From Bdellovibrionota bacterium (GTDB lineage Bacteria; Bdellovibrionota_C; UBA2361; JBGSMV01), in contig JBIKWF010000017.1 in NCBI GenBank assembly GCA_044356455.1, positions 1-53,527 on the forward strand: a stretch of DNA of 53,527 bases. Direction: 5' to 3'. Numbering within the stretch: position 1 is the first letter of the stretch; every line of letters starts with the position of its first letter. Of this stretch, positions 202 to 12,196 are shown piece by piece. Both the position numbers and the translations under genes were made by a program. The notes under the pieces are model-generated. The model searched no databases and was not told where the DNA came from. It saw nothing but the letters and a program-made list of their open reading frames with translations.

Positions 202-522
202 ATGAGCCAAGGAGAATCTCTAAATAAAATGTTACCTCATGACGAGGGGATGCTGCGCCATATCGCTGAGCGTATTCGTGCCCTTGGCTTAGTGGTGCCG
301 GTGCTCGCTTTTTTGGAGATGCACCGGCCGCTTCGCGGGGTAGCTCACGCGGGCGCTCTTGTTCTCGAGCCCACGCTTCGGTTTGTGTTTGGAGAGGGGC
401 GGACGTCCCCAATTTTAAGAATCTTGGAAAACCCCGAATCGCTCGATCGCCTCCTCGAGCTATTAGAAGAATCGCGGCCTACCCCTACAGCTTCTCAAGG
501 AGCACCACATGGGCGGGTTTGA
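202..522 (+). CDS. Small conserved hypothetical protein, first gene of the GlmL-type operon
   Basis: ORF overlaps the next gene; helical protein (IAERIRALGLVVPVLAFLEMHRPL) resembling small proteins I recall from GlmL/DUF6754 clusters; start uncertain (193/202/229). Confidence 0.65.
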   Translation: MSQGESLNKMLPHDEGMLRHIAERIRALGLVVPVLAFLEMHRPLRGVAHAGALVLEPTLRFVFGEGRTSPILRILENPESLDRLLELLEESRPTPTASQGAPHGRV

Positions 523-1351
523 GCACGCCACTCCTGGAATTATGGTGCTCATGGTCCTGCTTATTGGGCCTGTGCTTTATTATATCCGCGTCGCCCGGCA
601 AGGCCACGACCTCTACATCCGTCGGATTGCAGGAGTTGATGCGATTGATGAAGCAACGGGGCGCTCGGCGGAACTTGGAAGGCCGATATCCTTTTCAACA
701 GGGCTGACCTCTATCTCTCCGGCCCTCTATGCGTGCCTTGGGGTACTTTTTTACGTTACCAAAAAAGCTGCCCGGTATAACTCTCGCCTAGTCATTCCCC
801 AAAACGACCCGCAAGTAGTAGCCGTCGTAGAGGACACCTTGAGGGACGCCTACCGCGCGGAGGGAAGATCTGAACTCTATGATCCAAGGAGTGTGGTCTT
901 TCTCTCTGAAGATCAGTTCGCCTTTGCGGCTGGTTACATGGGAATGGTGCAGCGGGAGCAAGTAGCAACAGCGTTCCTCTTTGGTGTCTTTGCTGCCGAA
1001 TCGCTCATGCTTGCTGAAGCAGGTCAGCAGATTGGGGCCATGCAGGTGGCCGCAAGCCTCACGCCTGAGCAAGTGCCCTATTTTATATGTACTTGTGACT
1101 ACACGCTGATCGGCGAGGAACTCTACGGCGCCGCAGCCTATCTTACCCGAGAACCAATTCAGCTAGGCAGCTTGTACGGCCAAGATAGAGCAAAGCTCGT
1201 ATTCTTTGCGCTGATTGTTATTGGTGTTCTCATAGCAACATATAATTCAGTGGGTGCGGCTTACGGCATGTCAGCAATTCCGAATGTGACGGAATGGCTT
1301 CGCGTGGATCTTACGAATCTTACTGAATGGCTTCGCGGGGAGCTCTTGTAG
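509..1351 (+). CDS. DUF6754-like membrane-anchored protein
   Basis: N-terminal TM, IRRIAGVDAIDEATGRSAELGRP and CDYTLIGEELYGAAAYL motifs, C-terminal TM; SD aaggag upstream. Confidence 0.75.
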   Translation: MGGFEHATPGIMVLMVLLIGPVLYYIRVARQGHDLYIRRIAGVDAIDEATGRSAELGRPISFSTGLTSISPALYACLGVLFYVTKKAARYNSRLVIPQNDPQVVAVVEDTLRDAYRAEGRSELYDPRSVVFLSEDQFAFAAGYMGMVQREQVATAFLFGVFAAESLMLAEAGQQIGAMQVAASLTPEQVPYFICTCDYTLIGEELYGAAAYLTREPIQLGSLYGQDRAKLVFFALIVIGVLIATYNSVGAAYGMSAIPNVTEWLRVDLTNLTEWLRGELL

Positions 1352-1355
1352 CGGT

Positions 1356-2399
1356 ATGAGTTTTCGATCTCTGCTCATTCGAGTCTTTACTTTTTTGGGA
1401 GGAATTTATTTCTTCCTTAAATTTGTGCTTCCAGAAAGTTGGGGAGTTGCGGCCTACCATGCGCAAATTGCTGAAGGGTTTGCGCTTGTGAGCGCCATGG
1501 CTTTGGCGCTGGGGCTGATTAATCTTTTAATGGTACATGGCGGAAAAGTCTTGTATCGCCGTAGGGGCTGGGGGCCGAGTGTTGCTCTTCTCACTGGGCT
1601 TTCCCTCATGATGGTTATTACGGCGCTTGATTGGAAGGAGACGCGGCGTGTCTCGGCCTCCGTCCAGCGCGTAGTTCTTCTAAAGGATTTTGCAGATCGC
1701 ATTCTTCAAGATCAAGAAAAGGGGATAGTGCCCATAGTCGCGCAAAAGACCCTCACTGCTGAGGTGAGAGAACGATACCTCCTTGATGCCCTGGCTCCAC
1801 TCCTTGGGTCATTGGCGGAAGAACAGCGTGGATTCTCTGCGATGGTACCAGCAGAGCCGCAGACCCCAAGTGAAATTGGGCGTAAGCGCTTTTCGCGTGA
1901 GTTTGCAGCCGCATTGGAGGAAACGTCCCGACTATCGGGGATCATGCAATCTCGGGGGGGAGGATATGATCCTGCCCCGCTCAAGCAGCTTTCTCAGGCA
2001 CTTTCTGCGCTCAGCGTTTCGTATCGCGGCGTTGCTATGGCTGTGTACGGCACCTCGCTCACTAAGCATCTCTATGACTTTCTGTTTGAGGGGCTCTACA
2101 TCTCTCTGGGCGCGGCGATGTTCTCGCTGCTTGGGTTCTACATTTCAGCTGCGGCGTACCGAGCTTTCCGCGTGAAGTCCATGGAATCAGTTCTAATGAT
2201 GACTGCCGCGCTCTTTGTAATGCTCGGGCAAATCCCATTTGGGCTTTGGATCTCTGATTCTCTCCCTGAAATTAGGCTTTGGCTCTTGCAGGTTCCAAGT
2301 GCTGCCGCCGCTCGAGCTATCGATATGGGTGCTTCACTTGCGGGACTTGTGATGGCCTTTCGCATGTGGCTCTCCATAGAATCGGAGTCCTTCAAATGA
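1356..2399 (+). CDS. Polytopic membrane protein (operon component)
   Basis: Several hydrophobic segments around a ~140-aa helical soluble insert; AMFSLLGFYISAAAYRAFR motif. Confidence 0.75.
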   Translation: MSFRSLLIRVFTFLGGIYFFLKFVLPESWGVAAYHAQIAEGFALVSAMALALGLINLLMVHGGKVLYRRRGWGPSVALLTGLSLMMVITALDWKETRRVSASVQRVVLLKDFADRILQDQEKGIVPIVAQKTLTAEVRERYLLDALAPLLGSLAEEQRGFSAMVPAEPQTPSEIGRKRFSREFAAALEETSRLSGIMQSRGGGYDPAPLKQLSQALSALSVSYRGVAMAVYGTSLTKHLYDFLFEGLYISLGAAMFSLLGFYISAAAYRAFRVKSMESVLMMTAALFVMLGQIPFGLWISDSLPEIRLWLLQVPSAAAARAIDMGASLAGLVMAFRMWLSIESESFK

Positions 2400-3268
2400 G
2401 TTTCTCCTTTGCTACCATAGATCGCCGATTCGTCTATCTTTTGATCCTTGTAGCGCTTGCCGTCCCTCTTGTGCTTAAGGTGCATTTGAACACCGTACCT
2501 CTCAAATCAGCACAAAAATTTTTTGAGGTCGTTGAAGCGCAGAAAGCGGAGCAGGGGAAGTTTGTGCTTTTAGTCTTTGATTTCGGGCCGAATTCAAAGG
2601 CAGAAAACTTTCCGCAAACTGAGGTAGTGGTAGAGCATTTGATGAGAAGACGCATTCCGTTCGCGGTCTACTCACAATACTTGCAGGCTGAGCCGCTACT
2701 TGAGCTCATCCCTGCTGGAGTGGCCGCACGCCTATCGCGTGAAGACCCAGATCGGACGTGGGAATATGGTAAAGATTGGGTCAATCTTGGTTATCGAGTA
2801 GGCGGCGCACTGTTCATTCAGGGCCTTGTGCGCTCGGAGCGGCTTGGTGAAGTTTTAAAGAAGGACGCACGGGGTAATGATATCTCCACACTGCCGCTTT
2901 TCGATGGTGTTGCAGGAATTAGGAGCATCTCGCTGCTTGCACAGTTCTCGAGTCTCTCAGGAGCGCTTGAGACTATTTTGCAGTTTTTTCAAACTGACGA
3001 ATATCGTCCTCCGCTCTTGCATGGCTGCACCTCCATTACAATTCCAGCGGCCTATATCTTTCTTGATTCGGGACAAATGGTAGGCCTGCTCGAGGGCATT
3101 GCAGGCGCGGCTTCGTATTCAGCGCTCTTAGATGGGAAGTATCCTGGGCGTGAACCCGATCGCTCCTCGTTAATGATGACAGGGCTTGGTGTGGCGCATC
3201 TCGTGGTCATTGCACTCGTAGTCTTGGGGAATATAGCGGCGGGTCTAGCTTCGCGGAGGAACGCATGA
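2396..3268 (+). CDS. Membrane-anchored protein with soluble alpha/beta domain (operon component)
   Basis: ATG at 2396 overlaps the upstream TGA (ATGA); IDRR-TM, YGKDWVNLGY motif, C-terminal TM. Confidence 0.75.
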   Translation: MSFSFATIDRRFVYLLILVALAVPLVLKVHLNTVPLKSAQKFFEVVEAQKAEQGKFVLLVFDFGPNSKAENFPQTEVVVEHLMRRRIPFAVYSQYLQAEPLLELIPAGVAARLSREDPDRTWEYGKDWVNLGYRVGGALFIQGLVRSERLGEVLKKDARGNDISTLPLFDGVAGIRSISLLAQFSSLSGALETILQFFQTDEYRPPLLHGCTSITIPAAYIFLDSGQMVGLLEGIAGAASYSALLDGKYPGREPDRSSLMMTGLGVAHLVVIALVVLGNIAAGLASRRNA

Positions 3269-4005
3269 CTTCTCCTGAGGTTTGGGTGCTTCTTAATGTA
3301 ATCGTGGGCGGGGTTGCTACGCTTGCGATTTTCTCATTCCTGATCAAGGAAAATGGGTTCTATCGCTTCTTTGAGCATCTCTATATCGGAATCGCGGCTG
3401 GCTTTGGGATTATTCTTCCACTTAAAGTTTTCTTGTGGCCGAAGATACTCGAACCCATGCTGGGCATGGATATCGTTCAGTTTCCTGACGGAACTTTTTC
3501 TCGGGAATATAATCCACTCATTCTTCTGTATCTAGCTCCGGCATTGTTTGGGCTACTTTTCTATACCATCTATTCTCCTCGGTATTCATGGATGGCAAAG
3601 CTGGTGATTGGGCTTCTCCTTGGTATGAGTGGAGGAATGGCCTTCGAGGGCTTTTTCAATTACATCATTCCCCAGCTCGATGGCAGCCTTAAACCGCTTA
3701 TCGTGTATGAAGGGGGCGCATTTCAAGGCGTGAAGAGCCTTAACAATAGTCTCTTTGTCTTCACTTTGCTGGCAGTCATGTACTACTTTTTCTTCTCCTT
3801 TCGGCCTTCAGAAGGCCAGAAGTTGTCAAAGTTTTTGCCCGCCATTTCCGCCTCTGGCCGCTGGCTCATGATGGTATGCTTCGGAGCGTATTTTGGATCT
3901 ACGGTGATGGCACGTATGGCGCTTCTTGTTGAGCGCCTCCAGTTTCTTCTTACTGATTGGAAGTCGGCGCTCATGGCGGCAGCTTCTTTGGTGGCGGGTG
4001 TATGA
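3265..4005 (+). CDS. Polytopic membrane protein (operon component)
   Basis: ATGA overlap with previous gene; about 6 hydrophobic segments; KENGFYRFFEHLYIG and FGAYFGSTVMARM motifs. Confidence 0.75.
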   Translation: MTSPEVWVLLNVIVGGVATLAIFSFLIKENGFYRFFEHLYIGIAAGFGIILPLKVFLWPKILEPMLGMDIVQFPDGTFSREYNPLILLYLAPALFGLLFYTIYSPRYSWMAKLVIGLLLGMSGGMAFEGFFNYIIPQLDGSLKPLIVYEGGAFQGVKSLNNSLFVFTLLAVMYYFFFSFRPSEGQKLSKFLPAISASGRWLMMVCFGAYFGSTVMARMALLVERLQFLLTDWKSALMAAASLVAGV

Positions 4006-5840
4006 GTCAGGTGGACCCTCAGAAACTAACCACGGTACTCGTGACGGATTGTGGTTCAACTACCACGAAGGCGCTGCTGTTTCAGAAAACACAAGAGGGC
4101 TGGCGGCAAACCTTTCGTGGTGAGGCGCCGACTACCGTAGAGGAGCCCGTGGCAGATGTGACGGTAGGTGCGCGCAACGCCTTTGCAGAGGTGCAAGAAT
4201 TGAGCGGGCGGCCACTCCTACAGGAGTCCGACCCTCCCTTTATTAAAGATAACGGTTCAAACCGGGAGGGGATTGATCTCTATCTCTCCACCAGTTCAGC
4301 AGGCGGTGGACTCCAAATGCTGGTGGGCGGTGTAGTGCGCCAAATGACAGCAGAGTCGGCAGAGCGCGCCGCCTTAGGGGCGGGCGCGATTGTTATGGAT
4401 ACGCTCTGCGCAGACGACGGACGCGAAGATTTCGAGCGAGTAGAGCGCATTCGGCATCTCAGACCTGATATCGTACTCCTTACAGGCGGAACTGATGGTG
4501 GCTCTCGGTCGCATGTCGTGGAGCTTGCGGAGCTGGTTCTTTCAGCGTCGCCCAGGCCGCGTTTCGGCGATACTCTGCGACTTCCGGTTATCTATGCCGG
4601 GAATAAGGACGCGGCCGCCGAAGTCGCGGAAATATTGGCTCCGATTGCCCAGGTTCAAACGGTTGAGAACGTGAGGCCCACACTTGAGCGCGAAAACTTG
4701 GGGCCTGCACGTGAGGCAATTCACGATTTCTTTCTTTCCCATGTCATGAGCCACTCCCCTGGTTATGGGAAGCTTCTCTCGTGGAGCCCTGTGCCTGTGA
4801 TGCCTACCCCCGCAGCAGTGGGAAATGTGGTCCAAACCTTTGCGGCAAAAAATGGCTTGCAGGTGCTGTGCGCTGATATTGGCGGCGCGACTACTGATGT
4901 GTTCAGTGTTTTTAAAGATCACAGTCAGGCGCCCATATTCAATAGGACTGTCTCTGCCAATTATGGGATGAGCTACTCGATCGCCAATGTTCTCATTGAA
5001 GCAGGAGAAGATGCGATTGCCCGCTGGCTCCCGTACCAATTAAGTGGTTCAGAGCTACGCGATCGTCTCCGCAATAAAATGATTCGGCCGACCTCCATTC
5101 CGCAAACGGTAGAGGACCTTTGGTTAGAGCAGGCAGTGTGCCGCGAGGCGCTGAGGCTTTCTCTCGACCATCATCGATCCCTTGCCGTTGGTTTGAGCGG
5201 CGTTCAGCAGCGTCGTGGAATAGCTGATATCTTCTCGCAGCAGAAAAACCGCTATGACCTCGTCAATATGATGCAGCTTGATGTGGTCATTGGCTCAGGA
5301 GGCGTGCTGAGCCATGCGCCGCATCGCCTCGAAGCGGCGCTTATGATGATTGATGGTTTTGCCCTCGAGGGGCTCACGCAGATTACTGTCGATTCAATTT
5401 TTATGATGCCGCACCTTGGGGTATTCGCCTCCGTGCATCCCGGAGCCGCCGAAGAGATTTTCGTAAAAAACTGCCTCGTTAATATTGCCCATGCGGTAGT
5501 ACCGGTCTGGCCAGGAGCGGTGAGTCTTACCTCTCTGGCTCGCGTGCTTGTAGAGGGACAAGAAGTTGGTCTCGTACGTCCCGGGAAGGTGCAGCTTGCG
5601 CAGCTCCCAGGCCAGGAGAATCAAAGTGTGCGACTGGTTCTTGAGCCGGTGCACAGCTCAGTTGATGTGGGCGCCGGGCCTGGGAAAGTGCTGGAGCGAA
5701 CCATAACTGTCGGGGCGTATGGCCTTATCCTCGACGGCAGGAATCGTCCTTTGCGATTATCTTCCGATCCTGGGGTGAGAGTCGCTGAGCAGTGCGAGAT
5801 ACTTGAGGCCTTGGGGATTGGTAGTGCGAGGAAAAGGTGA
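4002..5840 (+). CDS. GlmL/MutL (glutamate mutase L)-family ASKHA ATPase
   Basis: Phosphate-1 DCGSTTTK, STSSAGGGL, phosphate-2 DIGGATTD, adenosine GSGGVL; ATGA overlap at 4002. Confidence 0.85.
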   Translation: MSQVDPQKLTTVLVTDCGSTTTKALLFQKTQEGWRQTFRGEAPTTVEEPVADVTVGARNAFAEVQELSGRPLLQESDPPFIKDNGSNREGIDLYLSTSSAGGGLQMLVGGVVRQMTAESAERAALGAGAIVMDTLCADDGREDFERVERIRHLRPDIVLLTGGTDGGSRSHVVELAELVLSASPRPRFGDTLRLPVIYAGNKDAAAEVAEILAPIAQVQTVENVRPTLERENLGPAREAIHDFFLSHVMSHSPGYGKLLSWSPVPVMPTPAAVGNVVQTFAAKNGLQVLCADIGGATTDVFSVFKDHSQAPIFNRTVSANYGMSYSIANVLIEAGEDAIARWLPYQLSGSELRDRLRNKMIRPTSIPQTVEDLWLEQAVCREALRLSLDHHRSLAVGLSGVQQRRGIADIFSQQKNRYDLVNMMQLDVVIGSGGVLSHAPHRLEAALMMIDGFALEGLTQITVDSIFMMPHLGVFASVHPGAAEEIFVKNCLVNIAHAVVPVWPGAVSLTSLARVLVEGQEVGLVRPGKVQLAQLPGQENQSVRLVLEPVHSSVDVGAGPGKVLERTITVGAYGLILDGRNRPLRLSSDPGVRVAEQCEILEALGIGSARKR

Positions 5841-5911
5841 GAATTCGCGGAGCTTTTCTGGCAAGGGTGAGCGATTACGTGAGCGCTGCTGAAGCAGCAA
5901 GGAAGTAACGT

Positions 5912-7051
5912 ATGGCACAAGCATTTACTCCAGGACTTACCGTACGCAGCGGAATTGTCATGCGAAAGTTGCGGGAGCTCCCGCTGGCGGGTGAAATTCT
6001 GGTGAAGCTCGGAGATCGAGTGAGCGCGGATCAAGAAGTGGCGCGCGCGTTTCTCCCCGGGGATTTGCACATTATGCGGCTCCCAGAAAAGATGGGACTC
6101 GAGCCCTTCGAAGTAACCAAAGGACTTAAGGTAAAAGAGGGCGACGAGGTCTCTGAGGGCGACCTCCTATGCGAGCATGCAGGTTTTTTCGGTTGGCTAA
6201 AGACAAGATTTTTTTCTACTGCAACAGGGGTCGTCGAGTTCCTCTCTGAGCGAACGGGCCATATCGGTGTTCGTTCGGCTTCTAAGCCCGTCAGTCTCAA
6301 TGCCTATATATCTGGAGAAGTGGTCGCGGTTGAGCCGAAGAAGTCTGTGACAATTCAAACCACAGGCGCACTGGTGCAGGGAATCTTCGGAGTGGGAGGG
6401 GAGCGAAGTGGCGTGCTTGCGCTTTTGCCTGTTACGGAAGAGCAGGCAGTTGAAATCTCGCATCTTCTCCCGGACTGCCGCGGGCTCATACTTGTGGGAG
6501 GTGCCTCAGCATCTGCCGCAGTATTAAAGGAGGCTGCTGCTCGTGGTGCCCTTGGGTTTATGGTGGGCTCTGTGGACGATCAGTCTCTTAAGAGCTACGT
6601 GGGGCATGATATCGGTATTGCTCTCACCGGCGACGAAAAAATTCCGATGACGCTTATCATCACTGAGGGATTTGGCTCGCTTGCCATGTCCACGCGTATT
6701 GTTCAGCTGCTTAAGGCATATGAGGGGATGCCCGTGTCTATTAATGGCGCAACCCAGGTTAGGGCAGGGGCCGTGAGGCCTGAACTCGTAGTGCCAGAGA
6801 GTAGTAATCAGGTGAGCGGAGTTCATAAGGTTTCCGATCTATCCTCAGAGCTTGGGGGAGGGGGGCTCCAGGTTGGTAGCCATGTGCGACTTATACGCGT
6901 GCCTTATTTTGGGGAAAGGGGGCAGGTTGTTGAGCTTCCCCATGCGATGGAAGAAATTCCGACGGGGGCCCATGCGCGTGTGCTTCGGGCGAAGCTTGCA
7001 GGCGGAACCATAGTGACTATTCCACGAGCCAATGTTGAGCTTTGCTCCTAA
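5912..7051 (+). CDS. Conserved hypothetical protein with barrel-sandwich-hybrid repeats and C-terminal KOW-like motif
   Basis: ILVKLGDRVSADQEVA and LKVKEGDEVSEGDLLC half-motifs; LQVGSHVRLIRVPYFGERGQV KOW-like end; SD aaggaag. Confidence 0.75.
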   Translation: MAQAFTPGLTVRSGIVMRKLRELPLAGEILVKLGDRVSADQEVARAFLPGDLHIMRLPEKMGLEPFEVTKGLKVKEGDEVSEGDLLCEHAGFFGWLKTRFFSTATGVVEFLSERTGHIGVRSASKPVSLNAYISGEVVAVEPKKSVTIQTTGALVQGIFGVGGERSGVLALLPVTEEQAVEISHLLPDCRGLILVGGASASAAVLKEAAARGALGFMVGSVDDQSLKSYVGHDIGIALTGDEKIPMTLIITEGFGSLAMSTRIVQLLKAYEGMPVSINGATQVRAGAVRPELVVPESSNQVSGVHKVSDLSSELGGGGLQVGSHVRLIRVPYFGERGQVVELPHAMEEIPTGAHARVLRAKLAGGTIVTIPRANVELCS

Positions 7052-7066
7052 GGACTTGAATCCGCG

Positions 7067-7876
7067 CTAGAAGCCCAGACTGCTTAGCATTGAGTCCACG
7101 TCGTCTTGAGCGAGCTTGTTGCCTGAGACATCGCCGCTACCTGTCGCTTGCGAGGGGTCTACGGGCGTTGGAGAACCCGGGTGCCCGAAGACTTTGATGA
7201 GTGAGAGGAGGTTGGCTTCGAGCTCTGTCACCAGAGTAATCACCTTCCGCAGTGCTTGACCTGTGAGGTCTTGAAAGCCTTGTGCTATTAAAACTTCGCC
7301 GTTGAGGCGCCGGGCCCCTTGGAGGAAGTGATTGTCCTCCGCTATGAATTCATTGAGCGCTGCGCGCAGTTCCGCTTCGCTTAGGCTTGCCTGTGCGGCA
7401 TTTTTGAGTTTCTCATGCCGACGCTCGGCGCCCTTGAGGAGCGCATCGGTTGATTCGCATATCTCGAGGGTCTTGTTGGCAGCCTCAAAGGTCACATTGA
7501 TAACGGCCTCCAGCTTCGAGGCGGCATCAGGGATGTTGGTGGTCGTAAGAGTAACGCTATTGACGTCGAGGCTTGTCTTAAAGTCACGCAGGGAATCATG
7601 GAGAGCCCGCGTCATTTGCCCGACGCGAGAAAATAGCTCGGAGTTGCTTTTGCCCCCAAGCTTCACGAGCGATTCTTCCACGTGAGTGGGATCGCCGGAG
7701 CCAAGCGCGCGCAGTAAGTCGCGGACGGCAACAATAATGGGAACCTGCTCCCCTGAACTAGAGTTGAGGTGATGAGTTTCTAGGATTTGAGCGGTTGTTT
7801 CAAAGATGCTGCATCCCGAAGCGGAAGGGTCCGCCTTCGCTGGCGGGGTGCCACCGGTCTCGTGCTTGCTACCCAT
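7067..7876 (-). CDS. cheZ: Chemotaxis phosphatase CheZ
   Basis: AQGFQDLTGQ catalytic motif and C-terminal QDDVDSMLSSLGF CheY-binding peptide. Confidence 0.85.
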   Translation of the reverse strand: MGSKHETGGTPPAKADPSASGCSIFETTAQILETHHLNSSSGEQVPIIVAVRDLLRALGSGDPTHVEESLVKLGGKSNSELFSRVGQMTRALHDSLRDFKTSLDVNSVTLTTTNIPDAASKLEAVINVTFEAANKTLEICESTDALLKGAERRHEKLKNAAQASLSEAELRAALNEFIAEDNHFLQGARRLNGEVLIAQGFQDLTGQALRKVITLVTELEANLLSLIKVFGHPGSPTPVDPSQATGSGDVSGNKLAQDDVDSMLSSLGF

Positions 7877-7952
7877 GATCTCCTCTACAATCCTACGACT
7901 TCGGGTTCAGCGCGTTCCCGTCGTGCGTAGTGAACCAAGTATTCAGAATCAA

Positions 7953-8351
7953 TTACTTCTGTTTGAAGATTGCTTCCATCTTGGTCTGCAGCACGTCTGC
8001 GGTGAAGGGTTTGATAATGTAGTTTGAGACGCCCGCCTTCGCTGCTTCGATGACATTTTCCTTCTGTGCCTCAGCTGTCACCATGAGAAAAGGGATTGCT
8101 TTAAGCTTTGCGTCGCCGCGCACTGCTTTAAGCAAATCAATTCCCATCATGTTCGGCATATTCCAGTCAGAAATAATAAACTTGAACTCATTGGCGCCGA
8201 GTTTTTGAAGCGCAACGGATCCATCTTCGGCTTCGGTGATGTTTTCAAAGCCAAGCTGTTTGAGACAGTTTTTGACGATTCGTCGCATCGTAGAGAAATC
8301 GTCCACCACCAGTATCGGCATTGCTTTGTCTAGGCTATTTAGTACTGACAT
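7953..8351 (-). CDS. cheY: Chemotaxis response regulator CheY
   Basis: [32 protein letters not shown]. Confidence 0.95.
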
Positions 8352-9025: not shown

Positions 9026-9643
9026 TCATCTTATCGGGATCCTCGTTGAGGTGGGTACAAATGCACGTCGGTCATTTTCGACAGTGAGAGCAGGCGTGCC
9101 CCAGTCGTGGGGAACGGTATCTGAGTTATAAGGAAAGCGACCTTCTTCGTTGGGGCTGTAGACTACACTTGTGATGTAGAAGAGTTGGGCTTCGGAGCTG
9201 AGAACTTTCAGTCCATGCAAAACACCCGGTGGAATTTTTATGCAGACTTCGTGTACACGGCTGCTCCCAAAGATACTCTGAGGGTACGACTCTGTTGCGT
9301 CGCCCATATTAAAGGACATTTTTTGGCGGTAGGTTGGGCTTTCCGGGCGATTGTCGAATAGAACGGTGTGAATTGAGCCAACGCCCACGTACCACCAGTC
9401 AATTTGTACGTGGTGATAGTGCCATGCCTTAACCACATCCTTAACCATGCGGCTATGGCTCCACTGCGCAAAGTCAGCGCCTTCAAAAAAGGGGTCAGTG
9501 CACCGGACAATTTCACGAAAGAATCCGCGCTCGTCGCGATGGGTTTTGAGAGGCTTAACAATTACCCCTTCTATGAGAGGGGAACCCGAAGTGAGCGAAT
9601 CGCTCTCGGAGGAAAGGTGGGAGGAGGGCGCAGCGGATGACAT
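9026..9643 (-). CDS. dTDP-4-dehydrorhamnose 3,5-epimerase family (RmlC-like cupin)
   Basis: HRDERGFFRE, VVKAWHYH, IPPGVLHG motifs. Confidence 0.85.
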   Translation of the reverse strand: MSSAAPSSHLSSESDSLTSGSPLIEGVIVKPLKTHRDERGFFREIVRCTDPFFEGADFAQWSHSRMVKDVVKAWHYHHVQIDWWYVGVGSIHTVLFDNRPESPTYRQKMSFNMGDATESYPQSIFGSSRVHEVCIKIPPGVLHGLKVLSSEAQLFYITSVVYSPNEEGRFPYNSDTVPHDWGTPALTVENDRRAFVPTSTRIPIR

Positions 9644-9763
9644 ACTATCTCTTCCTAATATGACCTAAGTAGTGTTTGCGGTGGGTGCGTGCCTTCGGCG
9701 AACTACCATCTCCCCTCTGCACCACAAAGACTACGAATAAGAACTTTTTCAGAGGCTCCCTAA

Positions 9764-9917
9764 GGAGCTTCTGAAAAGCCTCGCTACTTCATTTTTTCTC
9801 TGCGCTCTCTGTGTCCTCTGTGGTTTTTCCAATTCTTAAATCAACCACAGAGGACACAGAGGACACAGAGGACACAGAGGACACAGAGAGCACAGAGCGG
9901 ACTCTTTCAGAGGTTCC
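9764..9917. mobile_element. IS5-type MITE with 9-nt periodic internal inverted repeat
   Basis: CTAA|GGAGCTTCTGAAAAG ... CTTTCAGAGGTTCC|TTAA; six CACAGAG units at 9-nt spacing (9846-9897) complementary to 9798-9825; abuts a second right end at 9745-9759. Confidence 0.75.
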
Positions 9918-9944
9918 TTAAGTAACCACAGACGAAAAGAAATG

Positions 9945-10967
9945 TCACGAATGGCAGGCCCTGCGGAGGCGATCCATGATTGCAAGCCCTAGCCCCGCAT
10001 CGGGGCATGAATCTACCAAAATCAGGTCTAAGTCTTGGCGGTCAAGAACTCGTAATGCAGAGAAGAGATTCGCCGCAGCCTCTTCGAGGTCTCCCTCACT
10101 ACTGAGCACATACACAGAGCTAAACACGTTTCCTGGTTCGCCTACCGGGGGCTCTCGAAACGAAAGCAGTCCAACTTTTTTGGGAAGCGCCCCTTGCGGA
10201 AGATCCGACCGAAAGGCGAGAGGTGTACGTGGGGCATAGTGCTGCTCAAGCATCCCGGGCGCGAGAGGCTGCGGAGACGTCACCCCCTCAGAGGCGGACT
10301 TCGTTCCACCACGGGGCTTAGACTGGAGGCCCTCAACTTCTTGCTCGCCTAGTAGGGCGGTAAGCTGTTCTCGGGTAATCCCTCCAGGCCGCAAGATTCG
10401 TACTTTCGGCTCAAGAATCGTTACTATAGTTGATTCGAGACCAACGCGGCACGGGCCGCCGTCAAGAATAAAAGGCGGGTGATCAGAGAGCCCCTCTTCT
10501 ACATGCTGAGCGGTGGTTGGGCTTATGCCAGAGAAAGGGTTTGCGCTTGGAGCTGCGATGGGAAGCCCGCAAGCCTTAAGAAGTCTTAGCGCAATGGGGT
10601 GATCGGGGATACGCACGGCAACTGTTGAGAGTCCCGCGGTAACCACAGAGGAGATGGCAGTCGCCTTGGGTAGAATTATGGAGAGGGGCCCGGGCCACAA
10701 GGTTGCTAGAAGCTTAATTCTTCTCTCTACCATGGTAGAATTCGGTAGTGCCGCTACTAATGGGATCTCATCAACCGAGGCGATATGAACAATGAGCGGA
10801 TTAAAGGACGGTCGTCCCTTGGCTTTGAAAATGCCTCGGGTGGCATCATCTGAGAAGGCATTGGCGCCAAGGCCATAAACGGTCTCCGTGGGGAAAGCGA
10901 CAAGTCCTCCCTCTCGGAGGATCTCTGCGGCGCGTGCTATCGACTCCTCAGATGGCTGAACAATCAC
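9945..10967 (-). CDS. tsaC: L-threonylcarbamoyladenylate synthase (Sua5-type TsaC)
   Basis: VAFPTETVYGLGA, KGRPSFNPLIVH, AAPSAN, PGMLEQHYAP; GTG start overlaps upstream TGA, SD GGAGG. Confidence 0.92.
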   Translation of the reverse strand: MIVQPSEESIARAAEILREGGLVAFPTETVYGLGANAFSDDATRGIFKAKGRPSFNPLIVHIASVDEIPLVAALPNSTMVERRIKLLATLWPGPLSIILPKATAISSVVTAGLSTVAVRIPDHPIALRLLKACGLPIAAPSANPFSGISPTTAQHVEEGLSDHPPFILDGGPCRVGLESTIVTILEPKVRILRPGGITREQLTALLGEQEVEGLQSKPRGGTKSASEGVTSPQPLAPGMLEQHYAPRTPLAFRSDLPQGALPKKVGLLSFREPPVGEPGNVFSSVYVLSSEGDLEEAAANLFSALRVLDRQDLDLILVDSCPDAGLGLAIMDRLRRACHS

Positions 10968-12196
10968 AAGAGATTTGCCTCCAAGATTGTTTTCGCAAGC
11001 TGATCGGCGACGATCGAATGACCAATCGTGTTGGGGTGGCACGCATCAGAAGAGACGTAATAAAGATCGTTCTGAGCGAGCGTTGCACCATACTCACGCC
11101 GCATTTCGTTGACCTCGGAAGGGAATATGAGGCCAGACTTAAGTGCCGGGATGCTTTCAAGGAGCTTTCGTTGCCCATCAACAAAAAGCATGCCGTTTCT
11201 AGTCGCAGTCTTTTCGGCTGCGCTGCGGTAGTTCTTAGGTGCACAGAGTGTAAGGACTAGTGTACTCGCACCTGATTCTTTTCGGGCCTCTTGGCCCATG
11301 GCCGCAAGGTTCGCGCTGAAGCGTTTACGAGGAACTGCTCTTTGAAGCGGTGGTAGACTATCAAGCGTAGTGGTGGTGGTTGGTGGTTTCTGCAGTAAAC
11401 GGGCGAAAGTGCGGACTAAGGCGCTATGATTGAAAAGGGTCCTAAGAGCAAAGAGTGAGCTTGTATTGGTGAACGCCTCCACTTGTCCGCGGTGGGGAGT
11501 CACGACTGATTTTGCATCATTAGCCCCAAATCCCAAGATAACAAGGTCCGGAGAGAAGCGGGGAGCGTAGGTGCCGAAGATGAGCCTACCGTATTCTGAG
11601 GAGTCCCCTGGAATCGCAAAGTTGCCTACTTCGATGCGCTTCTTGGTTCCCACGGCGTCCTGAAGTTTTCGCTGTAGTAACTCTGAGAACATTGATTCTT
11701 GGTCTACTCCCCAACCAAACGCGCTTGAATCTCCGAATACCAGGATGCGAAAAGTTTCAGGAGCCTTTTCTGGTGAGATCTCGGGGCCTCGAAAGCCGAG
11801 GGAATTAGATCGAATAGCATAGCGGCGAGTCCTGTCGGTTGGAATGCGACTAAACGTATTCACCACCGAACGTTCAGCTGAAGGAGTAAGGCGTACCCGA
11901 AAACCATCCCCCTCCTCGAACATGCCGATCCACTCGAGGGCCTCTTTATCTACCTTTTGGAAATTCATGCGCGCGCGAGAATTGTCTTCACGCAGCATCC
12001 AGGTAGGCATATCGAGTGCCTGCGGAGCTGAGGTTCTTGGCTTGTCGCTCTGGTCAAGTTTGAAAACTCGGCAGGTAGCCTCGAGAAGACCAAACATAAG
12101 AAGGGGAACTAGTACGGAAATAGCGAGGCCCACCCTCCAAGCTCCAGGGGAGCTGGGGATCGTATTATGAGAATCTATAGGGCGACTTCTGCTCAT
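10964..12196 (-). CDS. SGNH/GDSL hydrolase with N-terminal TM
   Basis: NSLGFRG, FGDSSAFG, GANDA, DACHPN motifs. Confidence 0.85.
   Translation of the reverse strand: MSRSRPIDSHNTIPSSPGAWRVGLAISVLVPLLMFGLLEATCRVFKLDQSDKPRTSAPQALDMPTWMLREDNSRARMNFQKVDKEALEWIGMFEEGDGFRVRLTPSAERSVVNTFSRIPTDRTRRYAIRSNSLGFRGPEISPEKAPETFRILVFGDSSAFGWGVDQESMFSELLQRKLQDAVGTKKRIEVGNFAIPGDSSEYGRLIFGTYAPRFSPDLVILGFGANDAKSVVTPHRGQVEAFTNTSSLFALRTLFNHSALVRTFARLLQKPPTTTTTLDSLPPLQRAVPRKRFSANLAAMGQEARKESGASTLVLTLCAPKNYRSAAEKTATRNGMLFVDGQRKLLESIPALKSGLIFPSEVNEMRREYGATLAQNDLYYVSSDACHPNTIGHSIVADQLAKTILEANLL

Follow-up and report, generated by a model that had tools for sequence, protein, structure and literature searches.

Among described proteins, the closest relatives of the ATPase that concerns us here are GlmL/MutL, known from glutamate (methylaspartate) mutase, and Or-4, a protein of ornithine degradation. 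MutL is named as a mutase chaperone in a passage of one paper (PMC4682846), and a passage of another assigns glutamate mutase to three Dictyoglomus genes (PMC5167688). The ATPase in question lies in a stretch of 53,527 nucleotides from a Bdellovibrionota bacterium (contig JBIKWF010000017.1 of assembly GCA_044356455.1; 'the window' means this whole stretch), where it is the sixth of seven genes, g1 to g7, running from position 202 to 7051; the others encode a small protein (g1), four membrane proteins (g2 to g5), the first of them of the DUF6754 family, and a soluble partner of the ATPase (g7). We put the chance that this operon encodes a new type of membrane transporter at about even: g2 to g5, with g1, would form the pathway, and the g6–g7 pair would dock on DUF6754 to drive or gate it. 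We hold a little less firmly the larger proposition that primary active transport of a new class is powered here by an actin/Hsp70-fold ATPase, and that the membrane core, with one Rossmann domain facing either side, can drop its motor and go on working without it, and serves a core function of a whole uncultured phylum. What we observe, and what these readings build on, is an operon of two modules, their co-inheritance, natural fusion of g6 to g7, a single ATPase pair shared by several membrane cassettes, and a lineage that has the membrane unit alone.

How does this locus compare with what is already described? g6 is homologous to GlmL/MutL and Or-4 over residues 12–490 and has the same nucleotide motifs, but it falls under every curated cut-off, is about 150 residues longer, is paired or fused with g7, is linked to membrane proteins and is found without glutamate mutase. 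Like the diol/glycerol dehydratase reactivase (PMC7674605), the system has an Hsp70-like ATPase together with a domain of the swivelling type, though the reactivase is not among the top 50 fold matches of g7; here no B12 dehydratase client is seen in the neighbourhoods, the partner is in the membrane, and the swivel domain sits on a separate protein, g7, together with barrel-sandwich and KOW domains. The ABC/ECF transporters likewise let one energising module serve several membrane cassettes, although Pfam and NCBIfam searches of g1 to g7 match no ABC ATPase or permease family. ArsA, a P-loop ATPase, and its carrier ArsB match nothing here in sequence, and ArsB is one polypeptide where this system has four membrane subunits and an ASKHA (actin/Hsp70-fold) pair; the likeness is one of logic, the arsenite pump having a membrane carrier that can work by itself or with a soluble ATPase docked on it (PMC13381914). 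The g7 barrel-sandwich domain resembles NqrA and RnfC of the ion-pumping Rnf/Nqr oxidoreductases, which also recall the two subunits here with six transmembrane (TM) helices and opposite predicted orientation, but the match covers only about 65 residues, g3 and g5 have no conserved Cys, and the operon holds no flavin or Fe-S subunit. Finally, in contrast to the phosphohistidine swivel enzymes of the phosphotransferase system (PTS), the g7 swivel domain has no conserved phospho-accepting His. Judged by sequence, then, the system belongs to none of GlmL, Or-4, ABC/ECF, PTS or Rnf/Nqr, and its g2 does belong to DUF6754 (PF20539). In our literature search we found no relevant paper on an ASKHA ATPase working with a membrane transporter, and none of the papers found names DUF6754, TIGR01319 or PF13941, bearing in mind that most subscription papers and supplements, whose genome tables may mention the genes, lay outside that search.

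Two modules inherited together

The genes are remarkably constant companions in their own phylum, where, in a survey of 96 genomes, DUF6754, g6 and g7 are nearly always single copy: PF20539 and PF13941 (g6) are each present in 95 of the 96 and g7 in 94, g6 and g7 both occur in all 73 genomes that are at least 90% complete, and the system is retained even in genomes of only 1.7–1.9 Mb. In the source genome (93% complete) each of the seven genes is likewise single copy. In 16 of 18 genome loci g2–g7 form one block, and contig ends cut the remaining two; the block is contiguous and in the same order in 33 of 40 phylum regions, a set selected from the 95 DUF6754-positive genomes that partly overlaps the 18; three of the rest reach a contig edge, and four are split, with the ATPase adjacent or elsewhere in the genome. 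Contiguity in 33 of 40 regions means that the operon is no accident, and it bears out the preliminary description of this locus, which had asked whether its genes are conserved together in other genomes. That description had also read the locus as seven codirectional genes with ATGA stop/start overlaps at 2396, 3265 and 4002, and all of this is present, alongside a 14-nt overlap of g1 with g2 and spacers of 4 nt (g2/g3) and 71 nt (g6/g7); hydropathy bears out its four membrane proteins.

Among 79 metagenome loci selected by g6, a membrane cassette is nearby in 27, including 9 of the 13 with long flanks, and the usual order outside the phylum is g1-g6-g7-g2-g3-g4-g5, so the order differs and yet the genes stay together, which means that the linkage survives rearrangement. 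g7 directly follows g6 in 45 of the 49 metagenome loci with room for it, and the two are fused in four natural cases (L058, P0171, P0244 and L181), while the g2–g5 block is duplicated beside a single ATPase pair in three loci (L050, L071 and L108); fusion on the one side and block-wise duplication on the other tell us that the system has two modules. Homologues of g1 occur in 52 of the 79 metagenome loci and 36 of the 40 phylum regions, and g1 is a conserved member of the system, which probably assists the membrane unit as an accessory or adaptor subunit. The system is also carried by Nitrospira, a genus with cultured members.

A lineage without the ATPase

A second phylum (that of genome G096, with one member protein labelled Krumholzibacteriia) was also surveyed; its 121 genomes are drafts of at least 85% completeness, so that absence of g6 or g7 there means 'not found'. 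Of these, 34 have DUF6754; g6 is present in 21, g7 in exactly those 21 as well, and each of them also has DUF6754. Of the 13 DUF6754 genomes without the pair, 12 have an intact g2–g5 operon, 11 of these with g1 as well, and the twelfth locus, which lacks g1, starts at a contig end; the thirteenth genome, G106, was excluded from the motif count below. Searches of six genomes without the pair found neither gene, with one query (A2) that was positive elsewhere and another (A7) that had no positive control there, and it is unlikely that both genes were missed at the same locus in 12 related genomes. In a quick version of the g2 tree these 12 loci group on a single branch with support 87; its sister is L025, where g6–g7 lies between g1 and g2 in the gene context of the ATPase-less loci, and pairwise identities within the clade go down to 38–52%, which argues for long retention. 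Since a whole clade keeps the membrane unit without g6 and g7, the ATPase looks more like a motor or gate that can come off than like the only source of energy. The coupling of ATPase to membrane proteins that was originally suggested therefore stands in part: co-conservation and a weakly passing predicted contact with DUF6754 speak for it, but the membrane unit is not strictly ATPase-dependent.

The g2 proteins of the ATPase-less clade keep 47 of 60 conserved positions, the acidic cluster included, but none to two of seven particular residues (I40, G42, G51, R52, E55, Y198 and Y211), of which 73 of the 75 other alignment rows have five to seven; at R52 the clade shows up to nine different residues. 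Relaxed conserved positions number 5 of 9 in g2 residues 38–57 and 5 of 51 elsewhere in the protein (Fisher p 0.004, a value that overstates the case because the segment was picked after the alignment had been seen). We regard the helix at residues 40–55, from this pattern of conservation, as the likely docking site of the ATPase. Co-folding of g2 (residues 5–252), g3 (228–347) and g6 (6–606) gave a score of 0.41, against 0.00 for the best control, and the score fell to 0.00 when g2 was replaced; at least 72% of the contacts recur from run to run, with a partner predicted local distance difference test score (pLDDT) of at least 72. Of 157 solved complexes 116 reach the mark that this model passes, as do 2 of 215 mismatches; at 0.60 or under lie just 18 of the solved complexes but both passing mismatches. 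The model thus lends weak support to docking of the ATPase on DUF6754, in agreement with the evolutionary signal, which was measured separately.

The gene products and their surroundings

Table. Features of the operon; positions are those of the window except for the g7 domains, which are given as residues
Feature	Position	Strand	Description	Basis
g1	202..522	+	106 aa, small protein, no known family	
g2, DUF6754	509..1351	+	TM helix, six-stranded Rossmann-type domain, TM helix	Pfam and model
g2 residues 38-57 helix (RRIAG...GRSAELG)	620..679	+	candidate ATPase docking element; relaxed conservation in ATPase-less clade	
g2 Y198	1100-1102	+	lost along with helix residues in ATPase-less clade	
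g2 Y211	1139-1141	+	lost along with helix residues in ATPase-less clade	
g3	1356..2399	+	six-TM protein, predicted N-in	hydropathy, Lys/Arg bias
g3 helical insertion, TM3-TM4	about 1638-2060	+	phylum-specific, predicted outside	
g4	2396..3268	+	TM - alpha/beta domain - TM protein	
g5	3265..4005	+	six-TM protein, predicted N-out; conserved N30, E37, R217, R224	
g6	4002..5840	+	long GlmL-like ASKHA protein, 612 aa	
g6 phosphate-1 motif	4047..4070	+	DCGSTTTK	
g6 phosphate-2 motif	4875..4898	+	DIGGATTD	
g6 adenosine motif	5292..5309	+	GSGGVL	
g7	5912..7051	+	soluble g6 partner, three domains	
g7 barrel-sandwich hybrid	residues 49-123	+		model
g7 swivelling beta/beta/alpha or RraA-like domain	residues 152-296	+		model
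g7 KOW/SH3 domain	residues 316-379	+		model

By profile (PF13941, E-value 8.7e-120, 401 bits against a cut-off of 27) and by its three motifs, g6 is a member of the ASKHA superfamily. The motifs, for phosphate-1, phosphate-2 and adenosine, are intact, as had been described, and are invariant or nearly so in 94 homologues. Relative to GlmL models of 450–460 positions the protein has about 110 extra C-terminal residues, and it scores under all three NCBIfam cut-offs (NF040745, 218 of 475 bits; NF040744, 205 of 600; TIGR01319, 171 of 204); a PDB profile search gave one match only, at an E-value of 1.1. In the locus L073:1075-3264, g6 is joined in frame to ribosomal protein S7, likely a chimeric assembly.

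The g7 model (pLDDT 93.6) has the three domains of the table, of which a Pfam search catches the barrel-sandwich and KOW parts below threshold only. Its fold matches include enzyme I (Z 9.3, root-mean-square deviation (rmsd) 2.6, 107 residues aligned), RraA (Z 9.0–9.6) and NqrA (Z 8.4, rmsd 1.7, 64 aligned), and none of the positions that are at least 90% conserved across 132 g7 rows is a His. Foldseek's one match, Thermotoga NusG, has a TM-score of 0.12 and was set aside as reflecting shared small domains. Several loci show this pair in other states: genome G134 carries a second, divergent g6–g7 fusion of 983 residues (L181:3566-6514), without a neighbouring membrane cassette and with a TetR regulator on one side and an aspartyl protease-PDZ gene on the other; family f17 (L183:5663-11659 and L184:5542-11559) retains the whole operon with g6 shortened to 530–546 residues and g7 strongly diverged, its GVGGE and TGDE motifs lost, possibly an ongoing decay of the ATPase module; and in L079:1310-8529 g6 and g7 are separated by an inserted oligopeptide ABC operon.

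Turning to the membrane proteins, only g2 has a family (PF20539, E-value 3.6e-84, 282 bits, profile positions 13–249 of 257), since a Pfam profile search found no match for g1, g3, g4 or g5. The g2 model (pLDDT 92.3) is a Rossmann domain between two TM helices, with generic matches (best Z 10.8, rmsd 3.3, 147 aligned, and rank 50 still at Z 9.1) none of which rises above the Rossmann background, and Foldseek found none at an E-value of 0.001. The Lys/Arg bias (3.3 after TM1) puts this domain inside, so that it is predicted to be cytoplasmic; Q136, E164, Q179, Q188, D197, E204, D226 and K229 are invariant. In other phyla g2 begins with a signal-like peptide, followed by a variable N-terminal domain that is fibronectin-III-like by eye, though Pfam made no call on it. 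For g3, NCBIfam matched no family either, and a PDB profile search returned coiled-coil noise; two homologues of 614 residues (L051:14291-16132 and L053:6112-7953) have a large insertion where this phylum has its helical one. The g4 alpha/beta domain is likely outside, on a Lys/Arg bias that favours N-in at TM1 (2.4 against 1.5) and contradicts C-in at TM2 (2.3 against 1.1, in rows cut short). g4 may possibly be a distant paralogue of g2, the two profiles matching in register without significance (E-value 0.029, probability 1.7%), and an inverted duplication of g2 as g4 and g3 as g5 is statistically unsupported. A repeat-protein PDB match for g4 was rejected, a search for g4 fusions among long forms yielded three N-terminally extended proteins and no fusion, and an apparent g3–g4 fusion on one short contig (P0357) was excluded as a likely assembly error. 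Profile searches of the PDB with g2 and g5 returned no matches; the predicted N-out orientation of g5, like the N-in of g3, agrees with the Lys/Arg bias.

Upstream of g1, 17 loci of other phyla (for example, L072:81-563) have a small two-TM protein of no family, likely an eighth member of the system, with no match in the source genome. In this lineage two unnamed genes precede g1 in 27 and 21 loci (L018:4325-5293 and L131:4577-5470), the first having a homologue on contig C66 of the source genome; the window itself starts at a contig end, so that whatever precedes base 1 is out of reach. Downstream, on the minus strand, a cheZ-like gene and a CheY-type response regulator (7067-8351) converge on the operon's 3' end, a pair seen next to the system only in L016 and L043 and so is a local neighbour, followed by ordinary genes (9026-12196, minus strand) for a dTDP-sugar epimerase family protein, Sua5/TsaC and a GDSL hydrolase. 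The nearest named protein records are labelled Bdellovibrionota, Oligoflexia or Deltaproteobacteria. A promoter scan was at chance level (4 against 3.8 expected), g2 is in no plasmid record searched, no RNA holder is listed, and atlas protein searches gave hypothetical clusters only.

A proposed transporter and its rivals

If the operon does encode a transporter, we imagine it working roughly as follows. The outer domain of g4, joined in other phyla by the variable secreted N-terminal domain of g2, would capture a small solute, which 16 TM helices with conserved charged residues would then move; g6 would grip the g2 helix at residues 40–55, and its ATP cycle, with g7, would push or time a step. 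Without the ATPase the membrane unit might run as a facilitator or ion-coupled carrier, by analogy with ArsB without ArsA. That the cargo is a small organic nutrient, of amino acid or peptide type, is doubtful and the weakest step of the scheme; peptide ABC genes flank L049, L077, L079 and L113 and peptidases flank L097, which is a weak hint.

Of course, other explanations have to be weighed, and the one that the names in Pfam and NCBIfam suggest, in which g6 reactivates a B12 mutase in the usual way and stands in this operon by coincidence, is very improbable. The source genome does have methylmalonyl-CoA mutases, but MeaB adjoins a mutase there, and no methylmalonyl-CoA mutase was found in 11 of 78 genomes, all 11 of which retain g6 and g7. 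Glutamate mutase E (PF06368) is above cut-off in none of the 96 own-phylum genomes, the absence of a glutamate mutase first noticed in the window extends to the E subunit in the whole source genome, and g6, which is under all three NCBIfam cut-offs, tracks with no B12 mutase tested; lysine/ornithine aminomutase (PF09043) was in 0 of 78 genomes, with no control genome positive either. Nor is there a mutase or B12-binding protein among the 96 g6 neighbours scanned (of 126 on the same strand in metagenome loci), one of which is a homocysteine methyltransferase domain and most of which are unrelated housekeeping. We consider this reading largely refuted. Apart from this, the source genome encodes a B12-binding domain fused to a C-terminal helix-turn-helix-like segment (L003:161-1114), possibly a B12-responsive regulator. 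A more general chaperone, in which g6 and g7 assemble, reset or dismantle the membrane unit and do not energise each turnover, is better placed though still improbable. MutL/GlmL is called a reactivating chaperone in a passage of PMC4682846, in glycerol dehydratase reactivase an Hsp70-like ATPase goes with a swivelling domain and the mechanism is a subunit swap (so a passage of PMC7674605), g7 has a domain of the swivel type, and the membrane unit survives without the pair; on the other hand, no reactivase is in the top 50 g7 fold matches, no cofactor for exchange is evident and the job of the membrane unit is left unexplained, and the idea is in any case partly compatible with a transporter.

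A membrane-bound envelope enzyme, acting on a lipid, lipid-linked or protein substrate with active sites of g2 and g4 on either face and the ATPase pair as activator or regulator, is in our view unlikely without being far-fetched. The eight invariant polar or charged residues of g2, most of them kept without the ATPase, would suit it, as would Rossmann matches that include glycosyltransferases and transhydrogenase domain III, and near-universal single copy in the phylum; but those matches do not exceed the generic background, no gene for envelope or lipid functions is found constantly beside the operon, and twelve TM helices with several cassettes per ATPase look more like a transporter. The variable secreted domains on g2 and g3, and g7 domains resembling RraA and the KOW folds of NusG/Spt5, could also mean a transmembrane sensor, in which a signal from outside would reach g4 and the g2 ectodomain, which would then switch the cytoplasmic ATPase, with g7 as output. 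This seems to us quite improbable, because the supposed output is missing from a clade in which the membrane unit is complete, KOW and swivel folds are widespread and their Z-scores middling, and no regulator is a constant neighbour.

Coming back to the transporter, a number of points count against it, besides the choice of the helix segment and the range in which the complex score falls. Transport, binding and ATP hydrolysis are predictions from sequence and models, and no membrane subunit resembles a known transporter in PDB profile searches; inverted paralogy of g3 and g5 is undetectable (E-value 0.052). The connect-1 segment of g6 reads MPTPAAVG, without the Glu that is catalytic in Hsp70 and MreB. 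The ATPase-less clade is a single evolutionary event, L162 has lost the helix motif (1 of 7) although its adjacent g6 has intact motifs, and L182, L191 and L192, second cassettes of genomes with the ATPase, are degenerate. The chains for the complex were not chosen blind, and its prediction gives no contacts and so cannot confirm the g2 helix. Finally, neighbouring genes are mostly unrelated housekeeping, and phylum-wide single-copy retention would suit a part in the envelope or in housekeeping no less than nutrient uptake.

What, then, would it all mean? At a practical level, databases label the ATPase 'glutamate mutase L' or 'methylaspartate mutase', which invites false pathway calls, and its relatives make up at least 8000 protein clusters. 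The ATP-binding motifs of g6 make ATP hydrolysis a prediction, and nature's own ATPase-less version, with a single relaxed helix, furnishes a ready contrast for experiments. We know of no transporter family that is energised by an ASKHA ATPase, and if our reading is true, ATP would here be coupled to work at the membrane in a new manner.

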